DNA of 64,000 nt, taken from an uncultured Verrucomicrobiae bacterium. Lineage in GTDB: Bacteria > Verrucomicrobiota > Verrucomicrobiia > Palsa-1439. The notes beneath the pieces were generated by a model. The model was not told the origin of the DNA, did no database searches, and saw only the letters and a list, made by a program, of their open reading frames with translations. The translations under genes were made by a program, and so were the position numbers. Every line of letters starts with the position of its first letter. Positions within the stretch are counted from its first letter, which is position 1. Below, in pieces: positions 424 to 30,710 of this stretch. The stretch spans positions 512,001-576,000 of the forward strand of contig CAWEWF010000001.1 in NCBI GenBank assembly GCA_963812605.1, given 5' to 3'.

Positions 424-1926
424 TCATTTGGACCGGCGGGAATAGATGGCCGCGACCTCATCCGTGTACGACAGGCTCCAATCCTTGTGCAGCGCCAGCA
501 ACTCATTTAGCGGATGCGCGCGCGGAAGAAACGTCCAATCGACCTTGTACTTGCGCAGGACATCTTCCCAGCCGGGATGAGCCTGGTTTACGGTGTCGAA
601 ATCCCGGATGAGTTCCGGACCGTAGAAGTCGTTGCGGCCGTCCACGAACACCCTATGCTCGGGCATCACCAACACCAGGTAGCCGCCCCAACCGTAGTCG
701 TTGAACATCTCGCCACTCACAGCGCGGGGATTAGCGGTGACGAACCGGGTTGCGGCAACTGGGAAATAAGCGGGGAGGATCTCGGTGACCACGATGGGCC
801 GGCCGCCGAAGAGTGTTGGTTTGGCGAGAACTCCGAGCAACGCGATGAGAACGACGACCACCATCACGCATCCGTTGGTCGAGTGGTCGACCCGGCTCAC
901 GTTCGCGGAAAGTCTGCGATACCATTCCATTATGCGGCCGGGACCCGCCCTGTGAATGGCTGCCTGCCAATGCTCGGCGAGGATTGGGGTGACAACAATG
1001 GCGAAGATGGGCACATTGCGCACGGTTTGGAGCGCGAGGTGGCCCCACACACTGACCAACAGCACATCGGTCGCGTGAAGCCGTGGGCGCGCCACAATCA
1101 GCAGTACGGCCAACACGAGCAATTGCAACAAGAAGCCGCCCATCGCGGCCGAGTGAAAGCTCGGTGAGCGGAACTCGTTGGTGAACTTCGCAAGCACGGG
1201 CTCGCGCAAAAACTGCACGATGTGCGTGTGCAAGTGCCAGCCGTTCGGATTGATAAGCGAGGCCGCCACGCAGGCCACCCCCGTGATTACGAAGATCGCC
1301 GCCTTTTTTGGTTGGGCAAGATTCCCGGCGGCATAGATGCCGAGCATTACGAAGCCCGTAAAAAACGCCCCGTGAAGGTTCGCCCACAGCGTCATTAGCG
1401 GAATAAGCGGTCCCAACAACCGTAACACCCCCGCCTCGGGATGGCGGTCGAACGCGCGCAACCGCCAAGCGAATACAACGGTGAGCAGAAGCGTTATCAG
1501 ATGCGGTCGGGCCAGCCAATGATGTGTGGAGGCCAGCGCCGCCAGGAGCACAAGACCCGTTGCGAGCAACGACTCACAGTCTTCCGCCACCAGCCAACGA
1601 TACAACAGCCACAGCGTCGTCGCGATCAACAGCGCCCCCACTAATACCGCGCCGTTCCAGCCGAGCTTGTTGCCGGCGGCGGCGAAGATTACTTCGCTGA
1701 GCCACTCTTTTGAGATTAGCGGCGCGCCGAACCGGGTGTGAGAGAATTGGTCGACGCGAATCACGGCGCGGTGCTCGATCATCCACTGGCCGATCCGCCA
1801 ATGGAGGGATGGGTCGCCATCCGCATTGATCATGACCAGCCGCCAGTTCGACAAGCACAGGATGAGCAACACCACCAGCCAGATCATGGCGCCCAGCGAT
1901 GGCAGCAGCCAGCGGCGTGCGTTCAG
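424..1926 (-). CDS. GT-C-fold membrane glycosyltransferase-like protein, paralog 5 of 5 in transcription order
   Basis: Polytopic; motifs DGDPSLHWRIG, WLARPHL, WANLHGAF, NPNG, TNEFRSP, MFNDYGWGGYL, VFVDGRND. The conserved RWLLPSL N-terminus lies upstream of the ATG at 1887, so the start is probably CTG at 1926. Confidence 0.75.
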   Translation of the reverse strand: MNARRWLLPSLGAMIWLVVLLILCLSNWRLVMINADGDPSLHWRIGQWMIEHRAVIRVDQFSHTRFGAPLISKEWLSEVIFAAAGNKLGWNGAVLVGALLIATTLWLLYRWLVAEDCESLLATGLVLLAALASTHHWLARPHLITLLLTVVFAWRLRAFDRHPEAGVLRLLGPLIPLMTLWANLHGAFFTGFVMLGIYAAGNLAQPKKAAIFVITGVACVAASLINPNGWHLHTHIVQFLREPVLAKFTNEFRSPSFHSAAMGGFLLQLLVLAVLLIVARPRLHATDVLLVSVWGHLALQTVRNVPIFAIVVTPILAEHWQAAIHRAGPGRIMEWYRRLSANVSRVDHSTNGCVMVVVVLIALLGVLAKPTLFGGRPIVVTEILPAYFPVAATRFVTANPRAVSGEMFNDYGWGGYLVLVMPEHRVFVDGRNDFYGPELIRDFDTVNQAHPGWEDVLRKYKVDWTFLPRAHPLNELLALHKDWSLSYTDEVAAIYSRRSK

Positions 1927-3482
1927 GGGATCCTCCCATAAATAGTGGCGACCGGATCGCTATAGACCAGTCTCCAATCGACGCGCTGGGCCAACACACG
2001 GTTCAGTGGGTGCTCTGGTGGCAGAATAGTCCAGTCGACCTGATACTTCTTCAAGATGTCTTCCCAACCGGGCTCGACGCTATTCACATGAACGAAGTCC
2101 CTGACAACTTCTTCTCCGTAAGCATCCAGGTTGGGATGGAGGAAGACCTTTCGCTCGGGCATCGCCAGGATGAAATAACCGCCCCACGTGTATTCGTTGA
2201 ACATGTTACCACGCACCGCCGTGGGGGACCGGCGCAGGAATTCAACGGCGCCGGCGGGAAACCGGCTGGCGGGAAGTTCCGTAGCCAGGAGCGGCGGGCC
2301 ACCGAAAAGTTGGGGCTTGGCCAGCACCACAATCATGGCGATCACGGCCAGCCCGGGCAGGCCCCTGGCTCCGGCCATTTGATCCACGGAGATCAAGCGC
2401 GCGGAAAGGTCCCGGTAGCGTTGAAGAATGCGAGACCGGGTTGCGGTGCGCAGGCAGGCATTCCAGTGTTCCGCAAGGATCGGTGTGACCACGATGGCGA
2501 AGAGCGGCCCATTGCGCACCATGCGTAGTGAAAGGACCAGCCAGGCTACCAGCAACAGTCCGTCCGTTACGCGCAAGCGCGGCCGTGCGATTACCAGCAG
2601 TAACAGCACTACGAGCAACAGGATGACGAATGGCACCGTACTGGGACCATGGAAATCCGGCGGGAGATATTCTTGCGCAAATCCCATCAGCAGCGGGCTC
2701 CGCATGTAGCGGAAGATTTGGACGGGGAGATGCCAGCCATTGGGGTTCAGTAGCGAAGCCAGAAAACAGGCCATACCCAGCGCCGTCAGTACCGTTACCC
2801 GCCGGCATAACGCCGGGCGTTGGTCCGCAGCCGCGCGGGCCCAATTCACGACCGTACCGATCCAGTGGATTCCGATCAGCACGAACGCGAAGACGAAAGC
2901 CCCGTGCAGATTGGCCCACAACGCCGTCAGCAAGGGCAGGAGAATCAGCAAGTGGCACGCTGTCGTACGTCCGCGCTCGAACCATCGTAATTGCCACGCG
3001 AAGACGAGCACCAGGAGTTGCGTCGCCAGATGCGGCCGGGGCAGCCAATGCGTCACACACACGGCGGCCGCCAGCAGCGTCAGCAGCGTGGCCAGCAGGA
3101 GTTCATTGCCTTCGGCGAGCAACTGCCGGTGCAACAGCCACACCACCGTGGCGCAGACCACCGAAGCCACGAGGACGATACCGCCCCAACCGAGGAGGTT
3201 ACCCGCGAGCGCGGTCACGATCTCGCTCAGCCACCACAAATTCACCAGCGGTGCGCCTCCGCGGGTGTGTGAGAATAATTCAGTTCGCAGAATCGCGTGA
3301 TGTTGCAACATCCAGTTCCCCTGCTGCCAGTGCCAGCAGGGGTCGGAGTCGGAGGCGACCATTGTCACGCGAGCGGCCGTTAGATTCGCCGCGAGAAAGA
3401 AAACCAACCAGAGGACTGTGCTGACGGATGGCAACCACCATTGGCGGTGTGGAGGCGAACGTTCGATGACGGGAGAGTTCAT
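1923..3482 (-). CDS. GT-C-fold membrane glycosyltransferase-like protein, paralog 4
   Basis: DSDPCWHWQQG, WLPRPHL, WANLHGAF, AQEYLPP, MFNEYTWGGYF; ATGA overlap with the upstream paralog. Confidence 0.78.
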   Translation of the reverse strand: MNSPVIERSPPHRQWWLPSVSTVLWLVFFLAANLTAARVTMVASDSDPCWHWQQGNWMLQHHAILRTELFSHTRGGAPLVNLWWLSEIVTALAGNLLGWGGIVLVASVVCATVVWLLHRQLLAEGNELLLATLLTLLAAAVCVTHWLPRPHLATQLLVLVFAWQLRWFERGRTTACHLLILLPLLTALWANLHGAFVFAFVLIGIHWIGTVVNWARAAADQRPALCRRVTVLTALGMACFLASLLNPNGWHLPVQIFRYMRSPLLMGFAQEYLPPDFHGPSTVPFVILLLVVLLLLVIARPRLRVTDGLLLVAWLVLSLRMVRNGPLFAIVVTPILAEHWNACLRTATRSRILQRYRDLSARLISVDQMAGARGLPGLAVIAMIVVLAKPQLFGGPPLLATELPASRFPAGAVEFLRRSPTAVRGNMFNEYTWGGYFILAMPERKVFLHPNLDAYGEEVVRDFVHVNSVEPGWEDILKKYQVDWTILPPEHPLNRVLAQRVDWRLVYSDPVATIYGRIP

Positions 3483-5008
3483 GAGCGGTTACGCAAAAAG
3501 ACCATGGTTTGCTGGTTGGAGAAAACCAATTGCCAATCCGTCCGCATTTCCAAAATGCGATTTAGCGGATGCTGCACGGGCAGGAGCGTCCAGCCGACAT
3601 GATATTTCCCGAGCACATTCTCCCAGGCGGGCGTCAGATGGGAGACGTCGGTGAATTCGTGGAGGAAAGCCGCGTCGTAAAAATCGTCGCGACCGTCGAT
3701 GAACACCTTGTGTTCCGGCAGGTAAAGGATGAGGTAGCCGCCCCAGCCGTCTTCGTTGAACATTTCGCCATGGACCGCCTGTGGATGCGCTCGCAGGTAA
3801 TTCACCGTTGCCACCGGAAACCGATTCGCCGAAATCTCCGTCTCCACCATTGGCTGGCCGCCGACGAATACGGGCTTCGCAAGGACGAACAGCATGGCCG
3901 CCAGGACCGTCGCCACCAGGCCGTTGCCGCCCGCGGCGCGATTCAACAAGCCCACGTCGTTCGAGACTCGGCGAAACCAGCGGCTCCCTGGCGAGTCACG
4001 CGTATCCCGCCAGCCGGCGGACAGGTGCTCGGCAAAAATTGGCGTGGCGATCAGCGCGAAAATCGGCACGTTACGCATGGCGTTCAGCCCCGAGTATAAC
4101 CAGAAGGCAACGAGAAGGAGATCGGTGGTTGCCCAGGGCCGGCGGACGACGATGAGCATCAATCCCAGCACCAATAACTGCAGGGCGAAGCCGTGCATCC
4201 CGGCGAAGTGAAAATTGGCGGAGTTCCATTCGCCCGTAAAATGCGCCCGCGTGGAGTTCCACAGGAAACCGAGCAGGTGCTGGTGAAGTTTCCACCCGTT
4301 CGGGTTCAGGAGCGTGGCCAGCGCGCAGGTCGCCCCCAGAATTCCCAGTGTCATTGCGCGGCGGCGCAACGCGGGCTGAAAAACGGCCCCGACGAAATGG
4401 ATGCCGATGAGGATGAGTCCCGCGAGAAATCCACCATGGAGATTTGTCCATAACACGATCAACGGCACCAGCCAGAGGAAAAGTTGGCGTGTGTTCACGA
4501 GATCACGATCAAACCAGCGGAGTTGCCGCTCGAAGATGACTACAAACAGCAGCGTGTACAAATGCGGTCGCGCCAGCCAGTGCGTCGAGCAGGCCAGCGC
4601 CGCCAGCATGACCAACGCCGTCGAAATCAATGTGTCGCTTCCCTCCGCCAGCAGTTGTCGGTGGAGCAACGTCAGGGTGGTCGCAATGACCAGGGCGGCG
4701 ATCAGCACCACGCCGTTCCAGCCCAACGAGTTTCCCGCCGCGGCAAAGAGCACTTCGCTCAGCCATTCCTTGGTAATGAACGGCGCGCTTGGGCGGGTGT
4801 GGGAGAACAGGTCACTGCGCATGATGGCGTGATGTTCGATCATCCAGCTACCGGTGCGCCAATGCCAACACGGGTCGCCATCGGCATTGATGAGCACCTG
4901 GCGCCACCCGGTCAGCAGGATCGCCAGGAAGAACGTGATCCAGAGGAACTGCGTGAGCGACGGCAGCCACCAGTGGCGGCGGGGGGCGATGACGGCGTCG
5001 TTGCTCAT
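3479..5008 (-). CDS. GT-C-fold membrane glycosyltransferase-like protein, paralog 3
   Basis: Start MSNDAV at 5008 (ATGA overlap); DGDPCWHWRTG, WLARPHL, WTNLHGGF, TGEWNSA, MFNEDGWGGYL, VFIDGRDD. Confidence 0.78.
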   Translation of the reverse strand: MSNDAVIAPRRHWWLPSLTQFLWITFFLAILLTGWRQVLINADGDPCWHWRTGSWMIEHHAIMRSDLFSHTRPSAPFITKEWLSEVLFAAAGNSLGWNGVVLIAALVIATTLTLLHRQLLAEGSDTLISTALVMLAALACSTHWLARPHLYTLLFVVIFERQLRWFDRDLVNTRQLFLWLVPLIVLWTNLHGGFLAGLILIGIHFVGAVFQPALRRRAMTLGILGATCALATLLNPNGWKLHQHLLGFLWNSTRAHFTGEWNSANFHFAGMHGFALQLLVLGLMLIVVRRPWATTDLLLVAFWLYSGLNAMRNVPIFALIATPIFAEHLSAGWRDTRDSPGSRWFRRVSNDVGLLNRAAGGNGLVATVLAAMLFVLAKPVFVGGQPMVETEISANRFPVATVNYLRAHPQAVHGEMFNEDGWGGYLILYLPEHKVFIDGRDDFYDAAFLHEFTDVSHLTPAWENVLGKYHVGWTLLPVQHPLNRILEMRTDWQLVFSNQQTMVFLRNRS

Positions 5009-6516
5009 GACAGGTGCGAGAAGACCAGCGCTTGTTGATTGGAGAAGACCAGGCTCCAGTGCGGGCTCAGTTCGAGGATGCGATTCAGCGGATGCTGTAC
5101 GGGCAGGATTGTCCAACCGATGCGGTATTTCGCAAAGACAGCTTCCCAACCGCGTTGCGGCACGTCCATCGTTTGGAAATCTCGCAACAATTCGACGCTA
5201 TAAAACTCCGCGTCGAAGAATGGCTTCCGCTCCGGCAACGCAAACTCGAGATAGCCGCCCCATAAGAAGGTATTGAACATTTCCCCGTGGATGATTTCGG
5301 GGTGCTCCCGCAGGTAGGCCACCGCATCGGTCGGATAACGACTTGCCGGAAACCCGGTCGTCAACGCCGATTTGGCGAGAATCAACAGCACACAGAGAAG
5401 CGCCGCGGCAATGGGCAGGGCGCTACCCGCCGCGCGATCGAGGGCCGTTACCCGCACGGCCCACACGTGGTAGCCTTGCCACCATGACGAAGGGAGTTCG
5501 GTCCGCACGAAATCCGTGAGCCAATGCGCCAGCAGGGGAGTGACGAGCAGCACGAAGATCGGGACATTGCGAGCGGAGAACAACGCGAGGCAACCCCAGC
5601 CGCCCACCAGCAGGACATCGGTCGCGTCCAATGACGGATGCACCACCATCAACGTCACGCCCAGCAGGAGCAACAGCAACAGGAAGCCTCGCATGCCGAC
5701 CGTGTGAAAATTCGGCGACGCGAATTCGGTCGTGAGATCCGCCAGTTCCGGTGAACGCAAGAAACCGAGAATCTGCGCGTGCAGCTTCCAGCCGTTCGGG
5801 TTCACGAACGACGCGGCGAAACAAGTCAATAGCAACACAGCAAGCGTTTTCGACATTGTGTATAAGCCGGATCGCCGCCACGCGGTACAGGCGGAGCCGA
5901 GGGCATACATGGCAATGAGCACCAAGCCCGTCATGAACGCGCCGTGCAGGTTGGCCCACAAGATCATCAATGGCGGCAAGGACAGGAACACTTGCTGCGC
6001 GGATGCGCGTCCCTGTTGGAACCGGCGCAATTGCCAGGCAAACACCAGCGTTAGCAAGTGGGTGAACAACAGTGGGCGCGCCAGCCAATGCATCGAGCCG
6101 GCGAGCATGGCCACGAGAACCAAAACCGTCGCGAGCAGGGGGTCGCAACCGTCCGCCAGCAATTGGCGGTGAAGCAGCCAGTAGATGGTGGCAATCAGCG
6201 TGGCGGCGACAAGAACGACTCCATTCCAGCCAAACTGATCACCCGCCGCCGCGTACACCACTTCGCTGAGCCACTCCATCGACACAAACGATCCCTGATG
6301 CGTATGAAGGACGTTGTTTTCCCGGACAATTGTATGATGCTGGATCGTTAATTCGCCGAATCGGCGATGCCAGGCGGGATCGCTGTCAGCACTGATGAGG
6401 ACGATGCGGGCACTGGTCAGATTCAACCCGAGAAAGAGCATGATCCAGATCATCGCGCTCAGCGACGGAAGCCACGCGCGGGCGCGGATGTCGTGGTGGG
6501 GCGAAGCGTCCTTCAC
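5005..6516 (-). CDS. GT-C-fold membrane glycosyltransferase-like protein, paralog 2
   Basis: Probable GTG start at 6516 (GTGA overlap); DSDPAWHRRFG, WANLHGAF, TTEFASP, MFNTFLWGGYL. Confidence 0.77.
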   Translation of the reverse strand: MKDASPHHDIRARAWLPSLSAMIWIMLFLGLNLTSARIVLISADSDPAWHRRFGELTIQHHTIVRENNVLHTHQGSFVSMEWLSEVVYAAAGDQFGWNGVVLVAATLIATIYWLLHRQLLADGCDPLLATVLVLVAMLAGSMHWLARPLLFTHLLTLVFAWQLRRFQQGRASAQQVFLSLPPLMILWANLHGAFMTGLVLIAMYALGSACTAWRRSGLYTMSKTLAVLLLTCFAASFVNPNGWKLHAQILGFLRSPELADLTTEFASPNFHTVGMRGFLLLLLLLGVTLMVVHPSLDATDVLLVGGWGCLALFSARNVPIFVLLVTPLLAHWLTDFVRTELPSSWWQGYHVWAVRVTALDRAAGSALPIAAALLCVLLILAKSALTTGFPASRYPTDAVAYLREHPEIIHGEMFNTFLWGGYLEFALPERKPFFDAEFYSVELLRDFQTMDVPQRGWEAVFAKYRIGWTILPVQHPLNRILELSPHWSLVFSNQQALVFSHLS

Positions 6517-8055
6517 GGTTGTTTGCGGAAAATGGTCGCGACCTCGTTGGAGTAAACGCATTGCCAATCCGGCAGCAGGGCGAGCGCCAGATTCAGGCGG
6601 TGCTCGGTGGGCAGCAGCGTCCAGCTCACGTGGTATTGCTCGAGGGCCTGCATCCAGTTGGTTCGCAGCGCCGAGGTGTCGTCATATTGACGAATCAACG
6701 ATTCCCCGTAGAAATCCGTGCGGCCATCCACAAACACGCGATGTTCCGGCAGGGCGTGCAGCAAATACCCGCCCCAGACGTACTGGTTGAACATATTGCC
6801 CTTGAATTGCTCGGGATGCATCCGGATGTAATCGACCGCCGCGACCGGCCATTTTTTTGGCGGCATCTCGGTCGGGCGCGGAAAGCCCGCGATGGCGACC
6901 AGCGCGGCCACCCCGACGAGCAGCCCGCCGCGCGATACCGCATGCGTTTCGCCCAGCCGATTCGACAACCGCCGCACCCAGGCCGGCGAACCGTCGGCGA
7001 GCGCGGTGGCGAGAATCGGCGCCACAAAGATCGCCAGCAACGGGACATTGCGTCCCACGTAGAGGGCCAGATACGTCCAGACGATCAACATCAGCCCGGC
7101 GGTTGGCGACAACCGCGGCCGCACCAGCGCCAATGTCAGAAATGTGACCCCCAGCCAGGCAAGAAACCCGCGCGAGTCGGCCTCGTGGAAATTGGAAGAG
7201 GCGTATTCGGCCAGCCAGTTTGTCAGGTAATCGGAGTGGAGAAACTCAAGATTGAGCAGATGCAGTCGGTAACCGTTCGGATTCACCAGTGAAACCAATC
7301 CGCACAGCACGATGACACCCGTGAGTGCCCGAAGCTTCTGTCGCGCCGCGAGCCAGCGGGCGGGGTCGGTCCGCCCCAGAAACAGCTCGATCACGGCGCC
7401 GAGCCAGTACACACCCAAGCGTGATGAAGCCGGCGAGATAACCGCCATGGAAATTAACCCACAACAGTGTCAGCACGCCGAGAACGATGCCCAACCGGCG
7501 GGCCGACCCATCGCGTTCGAAACGGCGCAGGGCGTCGCACCAGAGCACGGCGAACAGAAAACTGAAGGCATGCGGTCGCGCGAGCCAGTGCGTGCAGGCG
7601 GCCCAGGCAGCGAGCAAGGCGACGAAAATCGCCACCGCATGATTGCCTGTCTCGCGCAATAATTGACGATGGAGCAGGGCGAAGGTCGTGGCGATCAACA
7701 ACGCGGCGACGACGACCAGTCCATATAATCCCGCCACGCGACCCGCGAGAGCGAAAATGAGTTCCGACAGCCATTCCTTCGAGACGATGGGCTCGCCGTA
7801 GCGCGTGTGCGAAAAGACATCGGTGCGAATCGGGATGTGACCCGTTTCCAGCATGTATTCACCGACACGCCAATGCAGACACGGGTCACCGTCACTGGCG
7901 ACCATCATGGTGCGCCACGGTTGCGCCAGCAGGATCAACAGGATCGTCAACCACAACCACTGGGTGAGCGACGGCATCAGCCACGGCAATACGCCACTGC
8001 GTGACAAGGGTGGGGAAGGTGGCTCCGCTTCGGATGGATTAGCGTTCGCAGCCAT
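6513..8055 (-). CDS. GT-C-fold membrane glycosyltransferase-like protein, paralog 1 (one frameshift near 7415)
   Basis: N-half in ORF 7246..8358 from MAANANP (DGDPCLHWRVG, WVNFHGGY); C-half in ORF 6513..7448 (NPNG, LAEYASS, MFNQYVWGGYL). An extra G in a GGG run accounts for the break. Confidence 0.75.
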
Positions 8056-8087
8056 GGCGCGCAGCTTACGAAGCGCCGCCGCAATGT

Positions 8088-10226: not shown

Positions 10227-10324
10227 GCACAGCCGATTGAAACAGAGGCAGCGCGTTGTCGCAACCATCCTTTCACAGTTTGCGCTAGAGCTACCCCGGC
10301 AACTCTGCTAGTGGAAGGAGACGC

Positions 10325-13170: not shown

Positions 13171-13190
13171 TCGGTTGGGAAGAGGCAACC

Positions 13191-14806
13191 ATGGCCCGTT
13201 GAGAGCTGAAGAAGGTAAATCGGGGGGGACCGTCGGGGCGATAGCGTTGGGGCGAAGTGATTACGGGATAGCGCTGGCACTGTTCGTGGTCGCGCTCGCG
13301 CTTCGCGTCCCATTCCGCAGCCAATTTGCGTACTACTGGGACAGCGCGCAGTTTGCGCTGGCGGTTGGGGAGTACAACATTCGCATCAGCCAGCCGCATG
13401 TACCGGGTTTCTACTTGTACATACTGGCGGGCCGGCTGATGAACCTGTTCGTGGGCGAACCGCATGCGGCGTTGGTATGGCTGAGCGTCTTCGCCGGGGC
13501 GTGGTTGGTTTCCGTGGGATACCTGCTCGCGACGTTGATGTTTGGGCGCAATTGCGGCTGGGGAACGGGGTTAATCCTGCTGACCAGCCCGTTAACCTGG
13601 TTTCACAGCGAAATCGCGTTGACGACCATTTTGGACAGCGCCCTGGTGGTGAGTTTCGTGTTCGTGTGCTGGCGGGCCATCGAACGGAACGTGACGTGGT
13701 TCCAAACGATTGTGCTGGCGGCCTTGCTGGCCGCCGCGGGGGGCATTCGCCAGCAAACCGCGCCCCTGCTGGTTCCGTTGTGGATCTACGTATTCTGGGG
13801 TTTTGCGCAGCCACGCGCGCGGAAGTTCTTCTGCGCGACAGTGTTGGCGGCTGGTCTCTCCCTTCTTTGGTTCCTGCCAATGCTGAAATCAGCCGGTGGC
13901 CTGAGTGGGTACCTGGATTTGCTGCGCTTGAAATGCCAGTTTGACAGATCGCGGATTGCCTGGGCCGGCGGGGGTGTGTTCGCTCTTTTCATGGATGTTT
14001 ACTGCATGGGGAGAGCCCTGTGGGTGGGACTATGGATCGCGGCGATCCTACCGTTGATGGAGCTCGCGCATTGGGTGTTTTACGAGAAAGGGGCGGGGGT
14101 TGTTGATTCCTATCGGGCGAACGGCAGGCAATTATGTGTGCTCGGGCTGTGGATTGCGCCGATGTTGCTCTTTGGCCTGCTCATGTACGTCGAAAGGCCA
14201 GGACATGCGCTCAATCTTTTCCCAGCCGTTGTGATCCTGGCAAGTCTTGGATTGGTCAGGTTTTCACGGCAACTGGTAATCGCGAGGTCATGGGGCCTGT
14301 ATGTCGTGTTCGCGATTGTCGTGGCCGTGAATGCAGCGCTGTTCCTGTTCGCGCCCCCGTTGGTAACACGGCTGTCACTGGGGTTGCGCCTCTCAGCGAG
14401 GGAGATCCAAGAGCATGATACCGATTTGCAGGCATGCTTCCGCGTTATCCGACAGAATTGGCCAGCCAAGAATGTTATTGTGTACCACTGGTATGAGGAT
14501 TTCTTCTGGGGGTTTCGCCAGTTTCAGTATCATCTACCGGAGTACCGGAATGTGCTTCTAAGGCCGGATGCCTCTCTGCCGCGTCCGCTGGGGGGAATGG
14601 CGTGGATCGGGTACGAGAGACGGACCGCTTTTGTCGATGTCACTTCGATCCCACAAGAGCAGGATATACTTCAAAAGGAGGACATACTTCTCGTCGTGCC
14701 CCCCGGTGAGTCCGTAGAGATGTTTCGGTCGACCGTCAAATTGGGGACCGAAGTCCTACTGCTGGAATCTGGGGTGAAATTATATGTTCTGCACTTACGC
14801 CCTTGA
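13191..14806 (+). CDS. Second DUF2723/TMEM260-like GT-C glycosyltransferase (tandem paralog)
   Basis: WDSAQFALAVGEYNIRISQPHVPGFYLY, GGIRQQ, GFRQFQYHLPEY shared with the upstream gene. Start is either ATG 13191 (needs a 1-nt indel) or in-frame TTG 13199. Confidence 0.68.
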
Positions 14807-15060: not shown

Positions 15061-15075
15061 TGGCACGTAAGCTGC
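15061..15075 (+). promoter_or_regulatory. Sigma-54 (-24/-12) promoter of flp
   Basis: TGGCACGTAAGCTGC versus consensus TGGCACGNNNNTTGC: one mismatch, correct GG-GC spacing. Confidence 0.7.
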
Positions 15076-15154: not shown

Positions 15155-15328
15155 ATGAAGAGAACTCTCCGAAAAATGTATCGCGGGCTGAAGTCGCGGA
15201 AGGGCCAGAGCTTGGTCGAATACGCGCTTATCCTGGCTCTCATCGCCGTCGTGGCGATCTTGGTGCTAAAGGGCCTTGGCGGTAAGGTCAACAACACCTT
15301 GTCGTCTGTGAATGCGAACTTGCCATAA
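15155..15328 (+). CDS. flp: Flp family type IVb/c pilin
   Basis: Basic leader, G|QSLVEY Flp motif, hydrophobic helix, strong RBS AAGGAGGTG. Confidence 0.95.
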   Translation: MKRTLRKMYRGLKSRKGQSLVEYALILALIAVVAILVLKGLGGKVNNTLSSVNANLP

Positions 15329-15539: not shown

Positions 15540-15554
15540 GGGCACAGCATCTGC
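15540..15554 (+). promoter_or_regulatory. Second sigma-54-like promoter, upstream of cpaB
   Basis: GGGCACAGCATCTGC, the same GGCAC-N5-CTGC pattern as the flp promoter. Confidence 0.5.
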
Positions 15555-15590: not shown

Positions 15591-16428
15591 ATGGCTAAGA
15601 AATCTGGTGCAGGTGGAATCATTTTGGCCGCCGTCGTCGCGGCAACAGTCGCTGTCTATTTGGTCTGGAATATGTGGCGGCAGGAAGAGCTGCAGTCCGC
15701 AAAGCACTGGACTGAAGTGGTTGCCGCGCAACAGGACATACCGGCACGCACCAAAATAACACGTGAAATGGTCACTTTGACCCGCTACCCGAAGGAGCTC
15801 GTCATCGACGGCGCCATCCGAAATCCCAAGGATGTGGACGGGCATACCACGCTGGTAAGGATCAAGGCCAAGGAACAAATTCGGACATCGGATATTCTGG
15901 GGGAGGGACAGGCTCCGGGCCTGGCGTACGACATCCCGCCCGGTATGCGCGCCATCGCCATCGGCGCCGGCGAAGTCATGGCCGTGGGTTCGACCGTGAA
16001 ACCCGGCGACCGCGTTGACATTTTGGCCACCTATACGGACCCGGTGGCGCATCAGGAAACCACGCAGATGATCCTGCAGAACGTGCTCGTGCTCGCCGTC
16101 AACCAGGGCGAGACCGATCAGCAGGGCAAGTCAGGCGCCAAGAGTTCGATGACGCTGGCGGTAAAACCGGAAGAAGCCGAGTTGCTGACGGCGGCGGACC
16201 GCGCCGGTGCGCTGCGTGTGGCCTTGCGCGGCCTCAACGAGAAAGCCGTGATAACGACCGCAGGGCGTTGGCACGCGGGATTTCCAGGGCAAGAACACCC
16301 TCACGTTCTCGACGACGCCTCCCGACCCGCAGAGATCGACACCGATCATTATCAGCCCGCCGCGGAACCAACGGCCGGAACTCGTGATTGTCAGGGGCAT
16401 ACAAGAGACAACCGTACCGCAGCAATAG
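15591..16428 (+). CDS. cpaB: Flp pilus assembly protein CpaB/RcpC (frameshift near 16263)
   Basis: SAF-like VVAAQQDIPART, IPPGMRAIAI, VKPGDRVDIL, ILQNVLVLA; the corrected frame ends ELVIVRG...TAG at 16428. Confidence 0.9.
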
Positions 16429-16471
16429 TCGCGAAGTACAGGAATTCGAAAAAGGAAAGGACAGCGTATAA

Positions 16472-18016
16472 ATGAAGAAGATGCAATGGAGGGGAATGGG
16501 GATTGTAGTTGCACTGTTAGCCATGGGGCTATTCGCAGTTTCCGACATCCGTGCGGACCAGCAAACGATTCAGGTGAGTGTCGGCCAAGCGGTTGCGGTT
16601 CCGAGCGAGAATGTTTCGAAAATTGCCCTCGCCGACCCGTCCATCGCGGACGTCGTAAACCTGTCCGACAAGGAACTTAGCGTCATCGGCAAGAAAGCCG
16701 GTATCACCACGCTGACGATCGTCAAGAGTGATGGCTCGGCAACCCAGATGTACCGCATTGAAGTCGGCAACGACGCCGTCGCGGATACCATCCGCCAGAT
16801 GATCGGGAACACCAACGTCACCGTCCATGCCATTGGCGATGCGCTGGTGCTCGACGGCAAAGTGAACGACGAAATCGAAGCGCAGCGCGCTGCGGCAATC
16901 GCCGGCGCCTACAAGCCGCAGGTCGTCAATCTTTTGGAAGTCTCGAAGCCCCGCCAGATCAAAATTCGTATCCGCATCGCGGAAGTAAATACGGAGGCGA
17001 TCAAGAATATCGGCTTCCAATGGTTTGGACCGCAGGGCCAGGTCCAGTACGCCATGCAGTATCTTGGTGGCGGCTCGATTGTAAACGGATTTGTCCCGAC
17101 CGCCAGCGAGTTTGGCACGGAAGGAACAACGTTCAGTCCGACCACCGTGTCAATGACCCTGCTCCTGGATATGTTGATCACCAAGAGCTATGCGCGGCTT
17201 CTTTCGGAACCCACCTTGGTGACCTTCAGCGGGAAGGAAGCGAGTTTCCTTGTGGGTGAAGAGATTCCCATCGTTCAGCAATTGCCGCAGTCGTTCACGG
17301 TGGAATTCAAGGAAGTCGGCGTGCGCATGAAGATCAAACCCACGTCCGACAGTGAAAACCGGATCAATACAACCATTCACGCGGAAGTTAGTCAGGTGAT
17401 TGGCACCGGCGCGAATGGTATTCCGATTATCGGCGCCAAGACGGCCGATACGACGCTGCAAGCCAGCGATGGGCAGACCATCGTGATTGGTGGTTTGCTG
17501 GAAAACAACGTGGATCGCGACATATTGCGGAAGCTCCCCTGGCTGGCGGAAATCCCGGTCATTGGGGCGCTGTTTCGTGACAAGCAGTTCGACCAGACCA
17601 AGCGCGAAGTTCTGTTTTTCATGACACCGGAAGTGGTCAAGGACGTCGATATGGATACTGCCAATGCCGCAAAGACGCCCGGAATGCAACATTGGGTCAC
17701 GACGTGGAACAAGGGGAAGATGATTCTGCCGCCGGATAAGAAGGACGACTGGGGCTTGCACAATCCTCAGCATATGGGCTTCCCCGTGCAGGACGAGGAT
17801 TCTACAAAGCCGGCCAAGCGGTCCAAGCCAACGGCTTCTACGGCCCCGGCCCCCGCCGCGAAGCCCGCGCCGGCGGCGAAGCCGGCGGCTGCGGCTCCCT
17901 CGGTCGTAACGCCAGCCGTTACGGCCCCACCGACGGCGACCACGCCCCCACCGGCGGCTGGGACTGCGCCTCAGGAGCCATCCACAAACTATTCTCCGTC
18001 CCGCCCGGCGGAGTGA
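16472..18016 (+). CDS. cpaC: Tad secretin CpaC/RcpA with Pro/Ala/Thr-rich C-terminal tail
   Basis: Signal peptide, IALADPSIADV, BON-like segment, LSEPTLVTFSGKEASFLVG, KLPWLAEIPVIGALF. Confidence 0.92.
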   Translation: MKKMQWRGMGIVVALLAMGLFAVSDIRADQQTIQVSVGQAVAVPSENVSKIALADPSIADVVNLSDKELSVIGKKAGITTLTIVKSDGSATQMYRIEVGNDAVADTIRQMIGNTNVTVHAIGDALVLDGKVNDEIEAQRAAAIAGAYKPQVVNLLEVSKPRQIKIRIRIAEVNTEAIKNIGFQWFGPQGQVQYAMQYLGGGSIVNGFVPTASEFGTEGTTFSPTTVSMTLLLDMLITKSYARLLSEPTLVTFSGKEASFLVGEEIPIVQQLPQSFTVEFKEVGVRMKIKPTSDSENRINTTIHAEVSQVIGTGANGIPIIGAKTADTTLQASDGQTIVIGGLLENNVDRDILRKLPWLAEIPVIGALFRDKQFDQTKREVLFFMTPEVVKDVDMDTANAAKTPGMQHWVTTWNKGKMILPPDKKDDWGLHNPQHMGFPVQDEDSTKPAKRSKPTASTAPAPAAKPAPAAKPAAAAPSVVTPAVTAPPTATTPPPAAGTAPQEPSTNYSPSRPAE

Positions 18017-18087
18017 TGGCCATGACGCTGGTGTTTGCCGGTATCGAAATTGCTAGGTAGTAGACTGGCAAAACCGATGTAAGAATT

Positions 18088-19302
18088 ATGGATCGTATCA
18101 CCGTCATCATTGCGGAAAATGAGCTCAGCGAGCGCGAGAAGCTGAAGGGCCAGCTTGCCAATGAGCAGCGCATCGAGGTCATCGGAGAAGCGCGCGACGG
18201 GAAAGAGTGCCTGGAGCTCGTCAAGAAGCAGCGGCCGGCAGTTGTCCTTATCAAGGAAGATCTGCCGGTGGTCAACGGGCTGGCGGTCGCCGAGCAGATC
18301 ACGTCGGAAATGCCCGAAGTGGGCGTGATCCTCATACTGACGGGTTCGGAAGGCCAGGAAGTCTGGCACAAGATGCTTCGCGCCGGTATCAAGGAGTTTC
18401 TTACCCGTCCATTTCCGGACGATCGGCTTCTCGAAGAAGTGCGCAAAGTTCACGGCATCCAGTCCAAGGCGGCGAAACACGCGGCGACGGTGGTTCCCGC
18501 AAAACCCGTCGAGCCCGAAGGCCCAAAACGACGAGTCATCACCGTCACCGGTCCGCGCGGTGGCTGCGGCAAGACAATCATTGCGGCCAATCTCGCGGTG
18601 GCCCTGGCTGGTGTGAGCGAAAAGGTGGCCTTGGTCGACCTGAACCTCTGGGGCGGCGATGTCGCCATGCTCCTGGATGTTGCGCCGAAGCGCACCTTGG
18701 GCGATCTGTTGCCGGGTTTTGGCGGCATCGACTATGATGTGGTTGATAGCGTCATGTCCAAGCACGCGTCGGGGGTCTCGGTGTTGGCCGCGCCGTTGAC
18801 GGGTACATTCGATGGCTCGACGCTCTCCCGTTACATGGTGCAAAGCATCCTCGAAGCCCTGCGCGAGAATTACGAATACACGATCATCGATACCGGCTAC
18901 GCCAATTTGGAGTCCACTCTCGCCGCGATGGATTATTCAGACCTGATCCTCGTGGTGGTGGGCATGGATCTGCCGCGATTGCGCGATGGGAAGCTTTACT
19001 TGAAGAATTTGCTGGCCGCCAATTACCCGAAGGAGAAAATCCGGGTCATTGTCAATCGCTCCACCAATTCGAAGGAAATCTCCTCGTCCGAGGTCGAGAC
19101 GATCCTGGAGTTTCCGGTGACGACGCAGGTTCCGAGCGACGATGCCCTGGTGGGTTCATCGGTGAACCTCGGGCAGGCCTTTGTCAGTTCCAGCCCCGGC
19201 AAGCCGGTGTCCAGGGCGATCCTGGGCCTGGCGGAAATGGTGTCGCCGCTGGCCACGAGCGTGAAGAAACGCTCCGGGAAATGGTTTTCGTTTATACAAT
19301 GA
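18088..19302 (+). CDS. cpaE: CpaE/TadZ: receiver-like domain plus MinD/ParA-type ATPase
   Basis: N-terminal REC-like domain; deviant P-loop GPRGGCGKT; LVDLNL; IIDTG. Confidence 0.88.
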   Translation: MDRITVIIAENELSEREKLKGQLANEQRIEVIGEARDGKECLELVKKQRPAVVLIKEDLPVVNGLAVAEQITSEMPEVGVILILTGSEGQEVWHKMLRAGIKEFLTRPFPDDRLLEEVRKVHGIQSKAAKHAATVVPAKPVEPEGPKRRVITVTGPRGGCGKTIIAANLAVALAGVSEKVALVDLNLWGGDVAMLLDVAPKRTLGDLLPGFGGIDYDVVDSVMSKHASGVSVLAAPLTGTFDGSTLSRYMVQSILEALRENYEYTIIDTGYANLESTLAAMDYSDLILVVVGMDLPRLRDGKLYLKNLLAANYPKEKIRVIVNRSTNSKEISSSEVETILEFPVTTQVPSDDALVGSSVNLGQAFVSSSPGKPVSRAILGLAEMVSPLATSVKKRSGKWFSFIQ

Positions 19303-19332
19303 ATGTGAGCGAGGAGGAGGTGCAGCGAATTT

Positions 19333-20631
19333 ATGGCGAACACTCCGGAAATCAGCACACAATTATATCTTGAGTCCAAAAACGCCATCCTGGCGTATTT
19401 GATCCAGAATATTGACCAGAAACTTCTCGAAAAAGGCGACGAGGCGCTGCTGCGACGTCGTGTCGAGGAATTGGTCGAGGAGAAACTTCGCTCCGAAAAA
19501 CTGCCCTTCTCGCGCCAGATGCGCAATCGGTTGGTCTCCGACATGGCCGACGAAATTCTGGGTTTCGGGCCCATCGAACCGTTGCTGCGCGACCCCACCG
19601 TCACCGAAGTCATGGTCAACCGTCCCGATCAGGTGTATTGCGAGCGCTTTGGCAAACTCGAATTGACAGACATCCAATTTCGTGACCTCCAACATATTCG
19701 TCACGTCATCGACAAAATTGTCACCCCGCTGGGCCGGCGCGTGGATGAATCCAGCCCGATGGTGGATGCCCGCCTGCCCGACGGCTCGCGCGTGAACGCC
19801 ATCATCTCGCCGTTGTCGCTCAACGGTCCGGTGCTCACGATTCGTAAGTTTTCCGTTGACCCGTATACCGTGGAAGATCTGATCGGGTTTGGCACACTGA
19901 CCCAGGGCATGGCGGCGTTTCTGGCTGCGTGCGTGAAGGTCAAACTCAACGTGCTGGTTTCGGGCGGTTCTGGCGCGGGCAAGACGACGCTGCTCAATGT
20001 GTTGTCGTCCTTCATTCCCGAAGGCGAGCGCGTGGTCACCGTCGAGGACGCGGCGGAATTGAAGCTCCACCAGCCCCACGTCGTGCGGCTTGAGTCGCGT
20101 CCGCCCAATATCGAGGGCAAGGGCGAGATCAAAATTCGCGACCTTGTCCGCAATTGCCTGCGTATGCGTCCCGACCGCATTGTGGTCGGCGAAGTGCGTG
20201 GCGGTGAGGCGCTCGATATGTTGCAAGCGATGAACACCGGCCATGAAGGCTCCATTTCAACGGTCCACTCCAACACGCCACGTGACGCGCTGGCCCGCCT
20301 GGAGACGATGGTGATGATGTCCGGCATGGACTTGCCCTCGCGCGCTATTCGCGAGCAGATTGCCGCGGCGGTCCATCTGATCGTCCAGATCGGTCGCTTG
20401 AGCGACGGCAGCCGCAAGGTCATCAGCGTGACCGAAATCCAGGGAATGGAAGGCAACGTAATCGTCCTGCAGGACCTGTTCTCCTTCCAGCAGAAGGGTG
20501 TCGGCGAAGGCGGCAAGGTGCTGGGAACGATGCAGGCCACGGGGATGGTGCCGAAATTCATTGACCGCTTCAATGCGGCGAGCATCCATTTGCCCGCGGA
20601 GATCTTTAAGAGAACGAGCGAGGTTCGCTAA
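19333..20631 (+). CDS. cpaF: Tad pilus assembly ATPase CpaF/TadA
   Basis: SGGSGAGKTT, VEDAAEL, LRMRPDRIVVGEVRG, AMNTGHEGS. Confidence 0.96.
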   Translation: MANTPEISTQLYLESKNAILAYLIQNIDQKLLEKGDEALLRRRVEELVEEKLRSEKLPFSRQMRNRLVSDMADEILGFGPIEPLLRDPTVTEVMVNRPDQVYCERFGKLELTDIQFRDLQHIRHVIDKIVTPLGRRVDESSPMVDARLPDGSRVNAIISPLSLNGPVLTIRKFSVDPYTVEDLIGFGTLTQGMAAFLAACVKVKLNVLVSGGSGAGKTTLLNVLSSFIPEGERVVTVEDAAELKLHQPHVVRLESRPPNIEGKGEIKIRDLVRNCLRMRPDRIVVGEVRGGEALDMLQAMNTGHEGSISTVHSNTPRDALARLETMVMMSGMDLPSRAIREQIAAAVHLIVQIGRLSDGSRKVISVTEIQGMEGNVIVLQDLFSFQQKGVGEGGKVLGTMQATGMVPKFIDRFNAASIHLPAEIFKRTSEVR

Positions 20632-20632
20632 C

Positions 20633-21625
20633 ATGGCAAGCATAGTACCCATTATCGTCCTGGTCGCGGCGGCGATTTTGTTGCTCGGCTACGGCGTCTA
20701 TTTGCAGGTGACCCGGCGGCGGACCATCCTGGCCGAGCGTCTGGAAACGTACGCCAACATCGAAGAAGAAGCCGCGCGAACCACCGACGAGGAATTGCAA
20801 AAACTGGGTCAGTTCCCGCGGTTTTTGCACATGATATTCGGGCCTGGGTACATGGCGCGCGTGGAGGAAAACCTGGCGCGGGCCGATATTCCCATGCGCC
20901 CCACCGAGTATTTGTTGTTGCGGGCAGTGCTGGTCCTGGTCGGATACCTGATCGGCCGCTATGTCCTGGGCTATCTACACAGCGGTCTCATCCTGGCCGT
21001 GGCGGGTTTCATCGCGCCGATCCTGTTCGTACGCGTCCACCAGAATCGGCGACGATCCAAATTCGTCCGGCAACTGGCCGATGCGCTGATGCTGCTGACC
21101 AACTCCTTGCGTTCAGGCTACGGGTTCCTCAAGGGCCTGGAGCTGGTCGCCAAGGAAATGGGCGATCCGATTTCGAAGGAATTGAACCGCATGTTGCGGG
21201 AGGTCAACCTGGGGACAACCGTGGACGACGCGCTGTTAAACCTCGGGCGACGCATGAACAGTCAGGATTTGGACATTGTCATCGGCGCCTACCTCGTGCA
21301 GAAGGATGTTGGCGGCAATCTGACCGAAATCATGGAGAAGGTGGCCGAGACCATCCGTGAGCGGTTACGTATTCAGGGAGATGTGCGCGTGCTGACGACA
21401 CAAGGGAAGCTCTCGGGATTCATCGTGGGCTTCATGCCCTTCGTGGTCTTTTTGGTCCTCATCCTGTCTGCGCCTGATTATTTCAGCGTCATGTTTGGGC
21501 CGCCCATCTGGACGCATTTTCTGGGTTACGACGTGCCGACGGGCGTGGCGCTGATGGCGGGGGCTGTGGCCTGGCAACTGATTGGGGCCTACATGATTTA
21601 TAAGATCGTCTCCGTAAAGGTCTAA
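20633..21625 (+). CDS. tadB: TadB (T2SS F family) platform protein
   Basis: QLADALMLLTNSLRSG, VGGNLTEI, VRVLTTQGKLSG. Confidence 0.9.
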   Translation: MASIVPIIVLVAAAILLLGYGVYLQVTRRRTILAERLETYANIEEEAARTTDEELQKLGQFPRFLHMIFGPGYMARVEENLARADIPMRPTEYLLLRAVLVLVGYLIGRYVLGYLHSGLILAVAGFIAPILFVRVHQNRRRSKFVRQLADALMLLTNSLRSGYGFLKGLELVAKEMGDPISKELNRMLREVNLGTTVDDALLNLGRRMNSQDLDIVIGAYLVQKDVGGNLTEIMEKVAETIRERLRIQGDVRVLTTQGKLSGFIVGFMPFVVFLVLILSAPDYFSVMFGPPIWTHFLGYDVPTGVALMAGAVAWQLIGAYMIYKIVSVKV

Positions 21626-21626
21626 C

Positions 21627-22554
21627 ATGTTTATTTTCACCATTATCACGGCACTTTTGGCGATCATCTTCGCGGCGGTCGGGTTCTACCGCACATCGGA
21701 CCGGTTTACCGTTGGCAAACGCATCGAACAGATCATGATCACCGATGCGCAGACGGCGGACGAGGAACTGGCGAAACCGTTTGTTCAGCGCGTGTTGTTG
21801 CCGCTCGGTGATTACGTCGCGAAATTGTTTCGCGGATATACACCCGCCGAGATGGCCGAGCGCACGCACAAGAAACTCGTGAAAGCGGGACTGTTCCCGC
21901 GCGTGACCGGGGTGCAATTGGTGGGCTTGTGCTGGTTCAGCGCCTCGGCTTGTGTCCTCATCGTGTTCCTGGTGATTATCGCCAGGGGTTCGCCGGGGAG
22001 GGGTCAGTTACACCGATCCGCTCAATTTGTTGCTCTTGGTGCTCGGTGCGCTGGGTGGATACGGCCTGCCGCAGTTCGTGCTCAGCCGGAAGGTGCGGAC
22101 CCGGCAGGATCTGATCCTCACCAACCTGCCTTATTCGATTGATATTCTTTCGATCAGCGTCGAGGCCGGCATGGGTTTTGACGCCGCAGTCGGCTACACG
22201 ATGCGCAAGATCAAGGGGCCGCTGGCCGAGGAATTTTCCAAGACCCTGAATGAGATCCGCCTGGGCAAACCGCGCCTGGAAGCCCTGGAGGATTTGGGCG
22301 ATCGCACGGGCGTGGACGACTTGAAGACATTCATTACGGCCGTGGTGCATGCCAGTCGCCTGGGCGGCAGCATCACCAATACGCTTCGTATTCAGGCGGA
22401 TTCGATCCGTACCCGCCGCCGTCAGCGCGCGCAAGAACAGGCCATGAAGGCCCCAATCAAGATCGTGTTCCCGTTGGTCCTGTTCATTTTTCCCGCGCTC
22501 TTCATCGTCTTGCTCGGTCCGGCGTTCATTAGCATTTTGCGCCAACTCCAGTAA
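21627..22554 (+). CDS. tadC: TadC platform protein (frameshift near 22000)
   Basis: LPYSIDILSISVEAGMGFD, AQEQAMKAPIKIVFPLVLFIFPA; two ORF halves. Confidence 0.88.
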
Positions 22555-22565
22555 ACGGCGCGGGA

Positions 22566-22979
22566 GTGGATTTGATGGTTTTGGTTAACGCCACGAAGAA
22601 AACGGTTGTCTCCGACAATTGCCATTTCGCCAACACCGTCCTGAAACGCATGGTCGGGTTGTTGAATCGTGGACAATTCGACGCGGGTGAAGGCCTGCTG
22701 CTGGACCGTTGCTACGGGATCCATACCTTCGGAATGCGTTTCCCCATCGATGTGCTGTTTCTCGACAAAGACCTCTGCGTCATCCGCGCCGTGAAAGCCC
22801 TGCCGCCGTACCGGACGTGCGTCGTCAAAAAGTCCGTTTACGTCCTGGAAGTTCCCGTTGGGGCGCTCGATGCCTCACGCACGGGCGAAGGCGACCAGAT
22901 TCAAATCCGCACGGCCAACACCGATACCACAAGCAGTGGACGGATGGCCGGGGTGGAAAAGACCCCCACCCAGTCTTAA
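22566..22979 (+). CDS. DUF192 family protein
   Basis: RMVGLL, IHTFGMRFPIDVLFLD, VLEVPVG. Confidence 0.85.
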   Translation: MDLMVLVNATKKTVVSDNCHFANTVLKRMVGLLNRGQFDAGEGLLLDRCYGIHTFGMRFPIDVLFLDKDLCVIRAVKALPPYRTCVVKKSVYVLEVPVGALDASRTGEGDQIQIRTANTDTTSSGRMAGVEKTPTQS

Positions 22980-30705: not shown

Positions 30706-30710
30706 TATTT

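Follow-up and report, generated by a model that had tools for sequence, protein, structure and literature searches.

Gene layout of the island

Few adhesion organelles of bacteria are as widespread as Tad/Flp pili. Positions 424 to 22979 of the window, by which we mean the whole 64,000-nucleotide stretch of contig CAWEWF010000001.1 analysed here from an uncultured Verrucomicrobiae bacterium, hold eight genes for membrane glycosyltransferases of the GT-C superfamily, followed by a locus for a pilus of this kind. Five of the eight are paralogs of a single family, here called the A family (A1 to A5), and its link to Tad pili is the main subject of this study. An earlier note, made from the sequence of this DNA alone, had listed the genes of the region, and open reading frames (ORFs) together with Pfam models recovered all of those it named. 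The GT-C genes occupy 424-14806, seven of them intact as assembled, in a genome (G000) of 4.17 Mb in 15 contigs that is 90% complete. The features are as follows.

1..416, plus strand: 3' end of a gene for an NtrC-type sigma-54 activator of 470 residues with REC, Sigma54_activat and HTH_8 (Pfam; L043:205-1617, window:6-416)
424..1887, minus strand: A1, A-family GT-C of the beta subfamily, 487 residues (50% identity to A2; A1 profile E 4e-233)
1923..3482, minus strand: A2, A-family GT-C of the beta subfamily, 519 residues, the modelled member (AlphaFold2, Foldseek, VIA-align)
3479..5008, minus strand: A3, A-family GT-C of the beta subfamily (4-bp overlap with A2; its start overlaps the A4 stop)
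5005..6567, minus strand: A4, A-family GT-C of the beta subfamily (profile match and tree)
6513..8055, minus strand: A5, A-family GT-C of the alpha subfamily, frameshifted (two ORFs, covering profile positions 16-209 and 204-519)
8088..10268, minus strand: polytopic membrane protein of 726 residues with a central domain like spermidine synthases and S-adenosylmethionine methyltransferases (PF01564, 8.5e-11)
10325..11605, plus strand: GT87-family GT-C, PimE-like (PF09594, 1.4e-21; 77.8 bits against a cut-off of 25)
11602..13170, plus strand: PMT_2/TMEM260-like GT-C, GT39-like, 522 residues (PF13231, 37.4 bits against a cut-off of 26.1)
~13175..14806, plus strand: second PMT_2/TMEM260-like GT-C (40% identity to its paralog at 11602-13170)
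15061..15075, plus strand: sigma-54-type -24/-12 element TGGCAC-N5-CTGC, ~80 bp upstream of flp
15155..15328, plus strand: flp, Flp/Tad major pilin, 57 residues (ATG behind an AAGGAGG site; motif G/QSLVEYALILALIAV)
15540..15554, plus strand: second sigma-54-type element, GGGCAC-N5-CTGC, ~40 bp upstream of cpaB
15591..16475, plus strand: cpaB/rcpC (Pfam)
16472..18016, plus strand: cpaC, secretin (Pfam)
18088..19302, plus strand: cpaE, REC plus ParA-type ATPase (Pfam)
19333..20631, plus strand: cpaF, ATPase (Pfam)
20633..21625, plus strand: tadB (Pfam)
21627..22554, plus strand: tadC, with a frameshift near 22000 (Pfam)
22566..22979, plus strand: DUF192 gene (Pfam)

The minus-strand operon is tightly packed, opening with the membrane spermidine-synthase-like gene and continuing with the five A paralogs, which share 43-50% pairwise identity. 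The GT87 gene and both PMT_2/TMEM260-like genes diverge from this operon on the plus strand, and a 330-bp gap of lower G+C separates the second of the latter from flp. The activator gene, whose start lies outside the window at G000:C1:511004, bounds the island opposite the pilus genes. A Flp pilin with the G/xxxxEY motif, RcpC/CpaB, a secretin, CpaE, CpaF and TadB/TadC are all present, as expected of a Tad/Flp (type IVc) locus, and this tad locus is the only complete one found in G000. The prepilin peptidase is encoded off the island, on C14, where the sole Peptidase_A24 matches of the genome (C14:645549-646215) occupy two distinct open frames with 400 bp between them, which would mean a further frameshift or a pair of partial genes. 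Outside tad loci, G000 has another three flp genes with no GT-C gene nearby (G000:C4:114555-114713, C5:236621-236791 and C6:433133-433303), the mature products of the C5 and C6 copies being almost identical in sequence to the window Flp. For the gamma-carbonic-anhydrase-like ORF at 23002-24201, a role as sugar nucleotidyltransferase was considered and rejected.

The protein encoded at 11602-13170 (PMT2a) scored 23.6 bits with PF11028 (TMEM260-like/DUF2723), just below the cut-off of 24.2; many of its homologs carry precomputed PF11028 matches, and homologs are annotated GT39. Its paralog at ~13175-14806 had no Pfam match of its own. The product of 8088-10268 reached 42.2 bits with PF01564 against a cut-off of 22.9, and matching protein-atlas clusters carry the name 'spermidine synthase family'; as a speE equivalog it reached only 29-42 bits with NCBIfam models whose cut-offs are 250-472. 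This gene recurs within the island in three genera, is syntenic in G022 and G352, and has left remnants in G346. Paralogs of it stand elsewhere in the window's genome (G000:C1:447603-449577, 35% identity, and C8:53898-55994, 61%), and an 834-residue relative lies beside PMT2 genes in G352 (L019:2947-5451).

Within the 64-kb window, GGCAC-N5-YTGC has exactly two matches, one at 15062 before flp and one at 15541 before cpaB, both on the gene strand. In the loci of ten relatives, spanning 202 kb, 8 of 10 matches lie upstream of flp or cpaB, and the placement before flp recurs in five of these loci. A sigma-54 consensus allowing two mismatches was discarded as uninformative (79 matches, 83 expected by chance). 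The rpoN gene is present in G000, and the NtrC-type activator likely regulates flp and cpaB. Since the eight GT-C genes are situated between this probable regulator and its probable targets, the GT-C block would lie inside the pilus module; the GT-C operons themselves carry no GGCAC-N5-YTGC motif in the window. Six kilobases past the tad locus, at 28797-34259 of the window, is a signalling cluster comprising three HisKA_3 kinases (two with RsbU_N), a LuxR-type response regulator, a PAS histidine kinase and a lone receiver protein.

Predicted fold and extent of the A family

The A paralogs matched no model in Pfam or NCBIfam. Sub-threshold matches, for example to CrcB (E 0.008), were set aside as chance, and none of the six ORFs of the window's five paralogs matched the Pfam models for STT3, AglB and PglB (PF02516 and PF22627) at E<=0.01. 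Likewise, 12 of 12 more distant and diverse members had no Pfam model on the membrane domain and no STT3 or AglB_core match, and searches of PDB sequences with the A profile and with its first-loop region returned chance matches only (AKT kinases and CPEB). The loop motif DGDPxWHWR may resemble that of STT3, a likeness not counted as evidence here.

An AlphaFold2 model of A2, built on a 24-row alignment, reached a predicted local distance difference test (pLDDT) score of 86.8 and a predicted template modelling score of 0.85, and all 28 Foldseek matches to it in the PDB at E<=1e-3 are GT-C enzymes. With VIA-align, the model aligned to solved GT-C enzymes over 400-456 residues with Z-scores of 14-20.5. 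STT3 came first (8pn9_A, Z 20.5, 456 aligned residues, root-mean-square deviation (rmsd) 4.5), followed by PglB (18.3) and AglB (17.1); PMT aligned over the membrane part only (Z ~17, ~310 residues), and DPY19 and ArnT scored ~15. The C-terminal domain of A2 (403-518) matched the globular domain of AglB-S2 (3vu0_C) with Z 9.1 and rmsd 2.9 over 109 of 154 residues, and a second AglB C-terminal domain (3vgp) with a Z of only 5.5. A model of PMT2a (pLDDT 87.3) drew ArnT, ALG12, ALG9 and STT3 as its top Foldseek matches, with ArnT first. The earlier note had called the five paralogs GT-C proteins and had proposed Foldseek as a check; the predicted structures of A2 and PMT2a, on which the check was run, are GT-C, and it is the A2 model with Foldseek and VIA-align, not Pfam or NCBIfam, that bears out the assignment of the paralogs.

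Across 31 A-family sequences from at least six phyla, the residues D47, H51, G55, R149, P150, W189, N191, H193, P247, E271, R323, P409, Y436, P442 and W503 (A2 numbering) are invariant, and D45 is conserved in at least 90%. D45, D47 and H51 are located in the first loop, between helix 1 and helix 2, which the positive-inside rule and the model would place on the periplasmic side. The family signature consists of DGDxxxHxRxGE in the first loop, HWLARPH, WxNLHGGF, RN(I/V)PLF, WGGY and DGRxDFYG. By its predicted structure, then, the A family is a GT-C family with an oligosaccharyltransferase-like architecture and a small C-terminal periplasmic domain, and its members presumably use a polyprenyl-phosphate-linked sugar donor.

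Close A homologs are all named 'hypothetical protein' and come from Verrucomicrobiia metagenome-assembled genomes (MAGs). A profile search of 1.84 billion cluster representatives, each standing for a 50%-identity cluster, found 28,515 at E<=1e-3, 18,800 at E<=1e-10 and 5,145 at E<=1e-30. A quick maximum-likelihood tree of the close family, from which rows covering fewer than 300 profile positions were excluded (the N-terminal piece of the window's A5 among them), divides into two old clades, alpha and beta. Every genus sampled has alpha, always as a single copy per genome, and in the window this copy is the frameshifted A5. Beta is single-copy in four genera and reaches three to four copies in the window's genus, where total A copies range from 3 to 5 between species, with split copies in several assemblies. 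In a sample of 301 genomes from the phylum, G000 included, the close family occurs only in G000, and weak relatives of 560-730 residues are found elsewhere; no tad genes lie near these relatives at the five loci examined (L022, L034-L037), and they fall outside our claim. One distant relative is encoded in G000 itself (C7:80514-81920; L022:6359-8638), a protein of 759 residues with 24-27% identity and C-terminal TPR repeats, again with no tad nearby, which we take to recall the architecture of TMTC-type O-mannosyltransferases.

Linkage of the A family to tad loci

A scan of 185,579 species genomes confirmed 582 A relatives, the best 80 of which gave 77 loci with flanks of up to 10 kb. A locus was counted as tad-positive if it held at least two of CpaB, CpaC, CpaF and TadB (tblastn, E<1e-6). 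Outside the Verrucomicrobiota, 46 of 66 A loci were tad-positive, with a median of 1.1 kb between the tad genes and the A gene, as were 31 of the 38 with at least 8 kb on both sides, these cross-phylum loci not all being independent lineages. A gene-neighbourhood survey had been proposed at the outset as a check on the association, and by these counts A homologs are strongly associated with tad. Tad-positive A loci were distributed as follows.

Acidobacteriota: 37 of 48
Desulfobacterota: 4 of 6
Gemmatimonadota: 2 of 2
Nitrospirota: 1 of 2
Chloroflexota: 1 of 7
A MAG labelled Heliobacteriaceae: 1 of 1

The Desulfobacterota carriers include the cultured Geomobilimonas luticola JCM 17780 (L103) and Geobacter sp. 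AOG1 (L119). The A gene is immediately upstream of flp in Bryobacterales and other Acidobacteriota, immediately 3' of DUF192 in Blastocatellia, Geobacteraceae and Gemmatimonadota, and convergent at a distance of 2-4 kb in Acidobacteriaceae; because the order varies by lineage, the link appears to have survived rearrangement. A Flp cleavage motif follows on the same strand, 27-370 nt past the A stop, in 17 of 67 A genes, a minimum given the strictness of the motif pattern, and in L139 and L157 the A gene and flp overlap by 4 bp. The order in Geomobilimonas is tad, DUF192, TMEM260-like, PTPS_related and A, and in an Anaerolineales MAG it is A, PMT_2, a 500-residue membrane protein and three flp genes. 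A Tad locus with this many GT-C enzymes had been thought to be without described parallel. With multi-GT-C clusters beside tad in Geobacteraceae and Anaerolineales as well, the window's locus is less singular than that view implied.

As a control, tblastn found matches to A, PMT2 or GT87 at 0 of 40 tad loci from other families of the phylum, loci that are of a different subtype and mostly without CpaC or CpaE matches. Their ten large polytopic ORFs encode seven transporters or unrelated membrane proteins, one GT2-family glycosyltransferase and two proteins of unknown family. In another verrucomicrobial family, a 663-residue protein with ~12 helices and the domains DUF7657 and DUF7654 is encoded 5 kb upstream of cpaB (L072:6620-8611, G331) and could be a different pilus-linked membrane enzyme. 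DUF192 (COG1430) closes the tad operon in the window and in many A-carrying tad loci of other phyla (L103-L152), and looks like an unrecognised regular member of the A-carrying Tad subtype.

Within the order, all 47 genomes were surveyed. The A family is present in 40 and RcpC in 38, and all 7 genomes without the A family are also without RcpC; G337 has the A family and no RcpC match, and G026 has a distant relative only. Where contigs allow, the A array lies 2-15 kb from RcpC in 14 of the 18 genomes of the window's genus (G000 included) and in seven further genomes from six other genera, and G352 has an A-gene fragment at a contig end ~10 kb from RcpC. The NtrC-type activator adjoins the A array in four other genera and is found between flp and the array in G019. 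A gene of the PMT_2/TMEM260-like family adjoins flp in seven genera, and the GT87 gene stays beside A genes in G025, G341, G350 and G354. G021 shows an empty site, where 545 bp separate FabI from the gamma-carbonic-anhydrase gene and nothing of the activator-to-DUF192 block is present. In G350 and G354, flp remains with the PMT2, GT87 and A genes, and cpaB to DUF192 are on a separate contig with no flp upstream, a break that may be a single shared rearrangement. In G344 the stretch from the A array to flp contains TadE/TadG pseudopilin genes, and in G019 such genes separate cpaB from flp.

Could this adjacency be meaningless, the product of inherited synteny and chance, with the island serving general protein O-mannosylation or envelope maintenance? 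In the window's family, FabI and the NtrC-type activator on one side and gamma-carbonic anhydrase and an amidase on the other are all syntenic, so that linkage within the family is weak evidence when taken alone. Moreover, G000 carries extra copies of PMT2, GT87 and SpeE-like genes elsewhere, and some A homologs are unlinked to tad. However, the linkage recurs in seven phyla with differing gene orders, the background among other tad loci is 0 of 40, and the sequence within 10 kb of tad amounts to less than ~1% of a genome, as estimated from genome and locus size. In G025, which belongs to another family, none of the window's searched flanking genes is at the locus, yet GT87, A-alpha, flp and cpaB stand together. 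Chance adjacency is thus strongly disfavoured, and we regard it as very improbable. A functional tie between the A family and the Tad/Flp pilus is, in our assessment, very likely.

Flp as a candidate acceptor and comparison with known systems

We consider the island more likely than not to be a periplasm-facing system that glycosylates the Flp pilin of the adjacent Tad pilus and that has expanded in this genome. Given their position beside flp in seven phyla, the A proteins are probably previously unrecognised enzymes that coat Tad pili with sugar. The earlier note had proposed a dedicated extracytoplasmic line for glycosylating pili or surface proteins; the GT-C fold and the linkage to tad across phyla favour this proposal, while its acceptor is one that we infer from gene context and a single complex prediction, on which Flp is the probable substrate.

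The window Flp has the cleavage motif G/QSLVEY and the mature tail KVNNTLSSVNANLP. For the acidobacterial A protein of L139 and its own overlapping Flp, complex prediction gave a score of 0.62, against 0.00 for the best of three controls; the mark is reached by 116 of 157 solved complexes and by 2 of 215 mismatched pairs, counts that are only roughly valid here because our own alignments were supplied to the prediction. At least 60% of contacts are shared between runs, and the partner pLDDT is at least 62. In the model, the membrane helix of the pilin packs on A helix 1 and on residues 125-141 and 364-368, and the Flp tail (residues 35-50) contacts A residues 40, 262-265, 273-278 and 316, which lie beside the invariant D41/D43, E265 and R317. 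The prediction supports binding of Flp by the A protein. In another family, the two Flp pilins of a related Tad subtype (L085:11774-12300, G028) have long Ser/Thr-rich tails (...TSQGVATTSPTAASS); no GT-C gene is found in the 20 kb retrieved there, and the A-alpha ortholog of that genome is unlinked.

One alternative is that the A family is a Tad assembly factor with a GT-C fold, either non-catalytic or differently catalytic, acting as a chaperone or dock for Flp or as an enzyme on pseudopilins, the secretin or a lipid. The predicted interface is formed mostly by the pilin membrane helix, there is usually a single A copy per tad locus, inside the operon or ending it, and no sequence-level similarity to characterised transferases is detectable; the pseudopilin genes near the A array in G344 and near flp in G019 are also consistent with such a role. 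Yet invariant acidic, His and Arg residues occupy the GT-C catalytic and phosphate-binding positions, with the topology taken from the model and the positive-inside rule, and the presence of five copies together with co-clustering with three other GT-C families here, and with PMT_2/PTPS_related genes in Geobacteraceae and Anaerolineales, fits glycan chemistry better. We regard an assembly factor as quite unlikely.

Under the glycosylation reading, the Flp prepilin would be anchored in the inner membrane, its short C-terminal tail, rich in Ser, Thr and Asn, projecting into the periplasm. An A enzyme would grip the membrane helix sideways, present the tail to its conserved acidic pocket, and move a sugar from a polyprenyl-phosphate-linked donor produced elsewhere in the genome. 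An ancestral pair of alpha and beta A genes would have grown to five, with the two PMT_2/TMEM260-like enzymes and GT87 added; polyprenyl-phosphate-mannose is the typical donor of these families, so that the added enzymes probably initiate or elongate further sugars, and by family membership mannose may be the sugar concerned. The off-island prepilin peptidase would cleave the pilin, which CpaF and TadBC would polymerise through the CpaC secretin. The eight GT-C enzymes may act as a sequential, multi-step line, and variation of the glycan could serve phage evasion, the one hint of which is the presence of three to five copies of one subfamily among congeners.

Alternatively, the GT-C enzymes may make or decorate another envelope glycoconjugate alongside the pilus, such as a lipoglycan, a holdfast-like adhesive polysaccharide, lipopolysaccharide or peptidoglycan, and leave Flp unmodified. 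The GT87 and PMT_2/ArnT-like families include lipid and lipoglycan enzymes (PimE and ArnT), ArnT is the top Foldseek match of the PMT2a model, a set of eight GT-C enzymes resembles polymer-building machinery more than simple protein modification, and the GT-C operons are without the sigma-54 motif of flp and cpaB. In addition, the Caulobacter Tad pilus, solved by cryo-electron microscopy, is reported to show no glycan density (PMC10710030). However, at least 17 loci have the A gene abutting or overlapping flp itself, not other genes, and in G350 and G354 it is flp, not the machinery, that stays with the GT-C genes. The absence of RcpC from 7 of 7 order genomes without the A family, and the placement of the Flp tail at the conserved pocket in the predicted complex, also argue against this alternative, which we judge possible but rather unlikely.

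Several further observations weigh against Flp glycosylation by the island. In other phyla, 7 of 38 full-flank A loci have no tad genes, the Chloroflexota loci are mostly unlinked, and the A homologs of G336, G028 and G038 have no flp/tad gene within 10 kb; in the window's own family, synteny extends to the housekeeping flanks. The Caulobacter result indicates that Flp glycosylation is not general. The statement of the earlier note that no soluble glycosyltransferase, flippase or Wzy lies in the island agreed with Pfam, by which no GT2, flippase or Wzy family was found in island or flanks. By the same means no donor synthase, including a Ppm1-type one, was identified in the island, and the GtrA family had no match in the 90%-complete genome, in which no search was aimed at GT2 donor synthases. 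The sequon N-X-S/T is present in the window Flp (NNT) and is not conserved in relatives, and Ser/Thr positions vary. The complex prediction concerns acidobacterial proteins, not those of the window, and its controls were unrelated proteins of unknown membrane character, and a hydrophobic helix may readily dock onto a membrane protein. Finally, two genes of the module are frameshifted within 23 kb of this 15-contig assembly. In A5, DNA alignment with three orthologs reveals a single additional base near 7415-7417, an insertion absent from a 98%-identical soil-metagenome contig (low-depth Logan contigs), and tadC changes frame near 22000 where its ortholog in L019 is one ORF. In view of that contig, the breaks may be assembly errors or strain-specific, and two broken genes so close together make indel errors possible.

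Among known systems, the oligosaccharyltransferases STT3, AglB and PglB (GT66) are the best full-length structural matches of A2 and, like it, carry a D-x-D-type motif in their first external loop. AglB has archaellins and archaeal type IV pilins among its glycosylation substrates. The A proteins are shorter, at 490-560 residues against ~650-870, their C-terminal motif is WGGY(L)I with DGRxDFYG instead of the oligosaccharyltransferase WWDYG, and the acceptor sequon N-X-S/T is not conserved in the Flp tails. The Tad system has been proposed to be of archaeal origin. In a more speculative scenario, which we think improbable, the A family would be a miniaturised and strongly diverged AglB/STT3 descendant that travelled with Tad and still glycosylates pilins; the five paralogs and three further GT-C enzymes would build the Flp glycan wholly outside the cytoplasm, needing neither a cytoplasmic glycosyltransferase nor an en-bloc carrier step, and changes in copy number would diversify the coat against phages and predators. 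Actinobacterial O-mannosylation (Pmt/GT39, with PimE-type GT87 in mannan synthesis) resembles the two PMT_2/TMEM260-like enzymes and GT87 of the island. The Pmt/GT39 and GT87 families act outside the membrane with polyprenyl-phosphate-mannose. Actinobacterial O-mannosylation is general, however, serving many secreted proteins and lipoglycans with no tie to a pilus.

Flp1 of Aggregatibacter actinomycetemcomitans, a Tad pilin, is reported to carry post-translational modifications, glycosylation among them (PMC6182317, citing Inoue 2000), and the enzymes are unnamed in the available part of that paper. The accessible portions of two reviews (PMC13721041 and PMC13234629) contain nothing on Flp glycosylation enzymes, and in the full-text literature searched, which leaves most subscription journals outside, we found no published GT-C family tied to tad loci and no named enzyme that glycosylates a Flp pilin. 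With thousands of clusters, an oligosaccharyltransferase-like predicted fold and coupling to flp in seven phyla, the A family provides a concrete candidate for a Flp glycosyltransferase, and its two cultured carriers, Geomobilimonas luticola and Geobacter sp. AOG1, make the question directly testable. If the proposal is correct, this very large and unnamed family would constitute a new branch of the GT-C superfamily, and the window would offer a natural case of gene-family expansion for studying the origin of filament glycan diversity.

A parallel in gene arrangement is TfpW of group IV Pseudomonas aeruginosa. TfpW is a GT-C enzyme encoded beside pilA that arabinosylates the type IVa pilin in the periplasm with a polyprenyl-phosphate-linked sugar (bioRxiv 10.1101/2020.04.19.049825). 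In both cases a GT-C gene neighbours the major pilin gene, in the window a PMT2-like gene 330 bp upstream of flp. The pili served by TfpW are of type IVa and have globular pilins, whereas here the pilin is Flp, a helix of 40 residues, and the pilus is of the Tad type (type IVc); the TfpW locus has one GT-C gene, whereas this one has eight from four families and no donor pathway nearby. The A family differs from TfpW further in having no database model and a fold nearest to STT3, PglB and AglB. If Flp glycosylation by the island is borne out, the logic of a GT-C enzyme encoded next to its pilin would extend from the type IVa pili served by TfpW to Tad pili.

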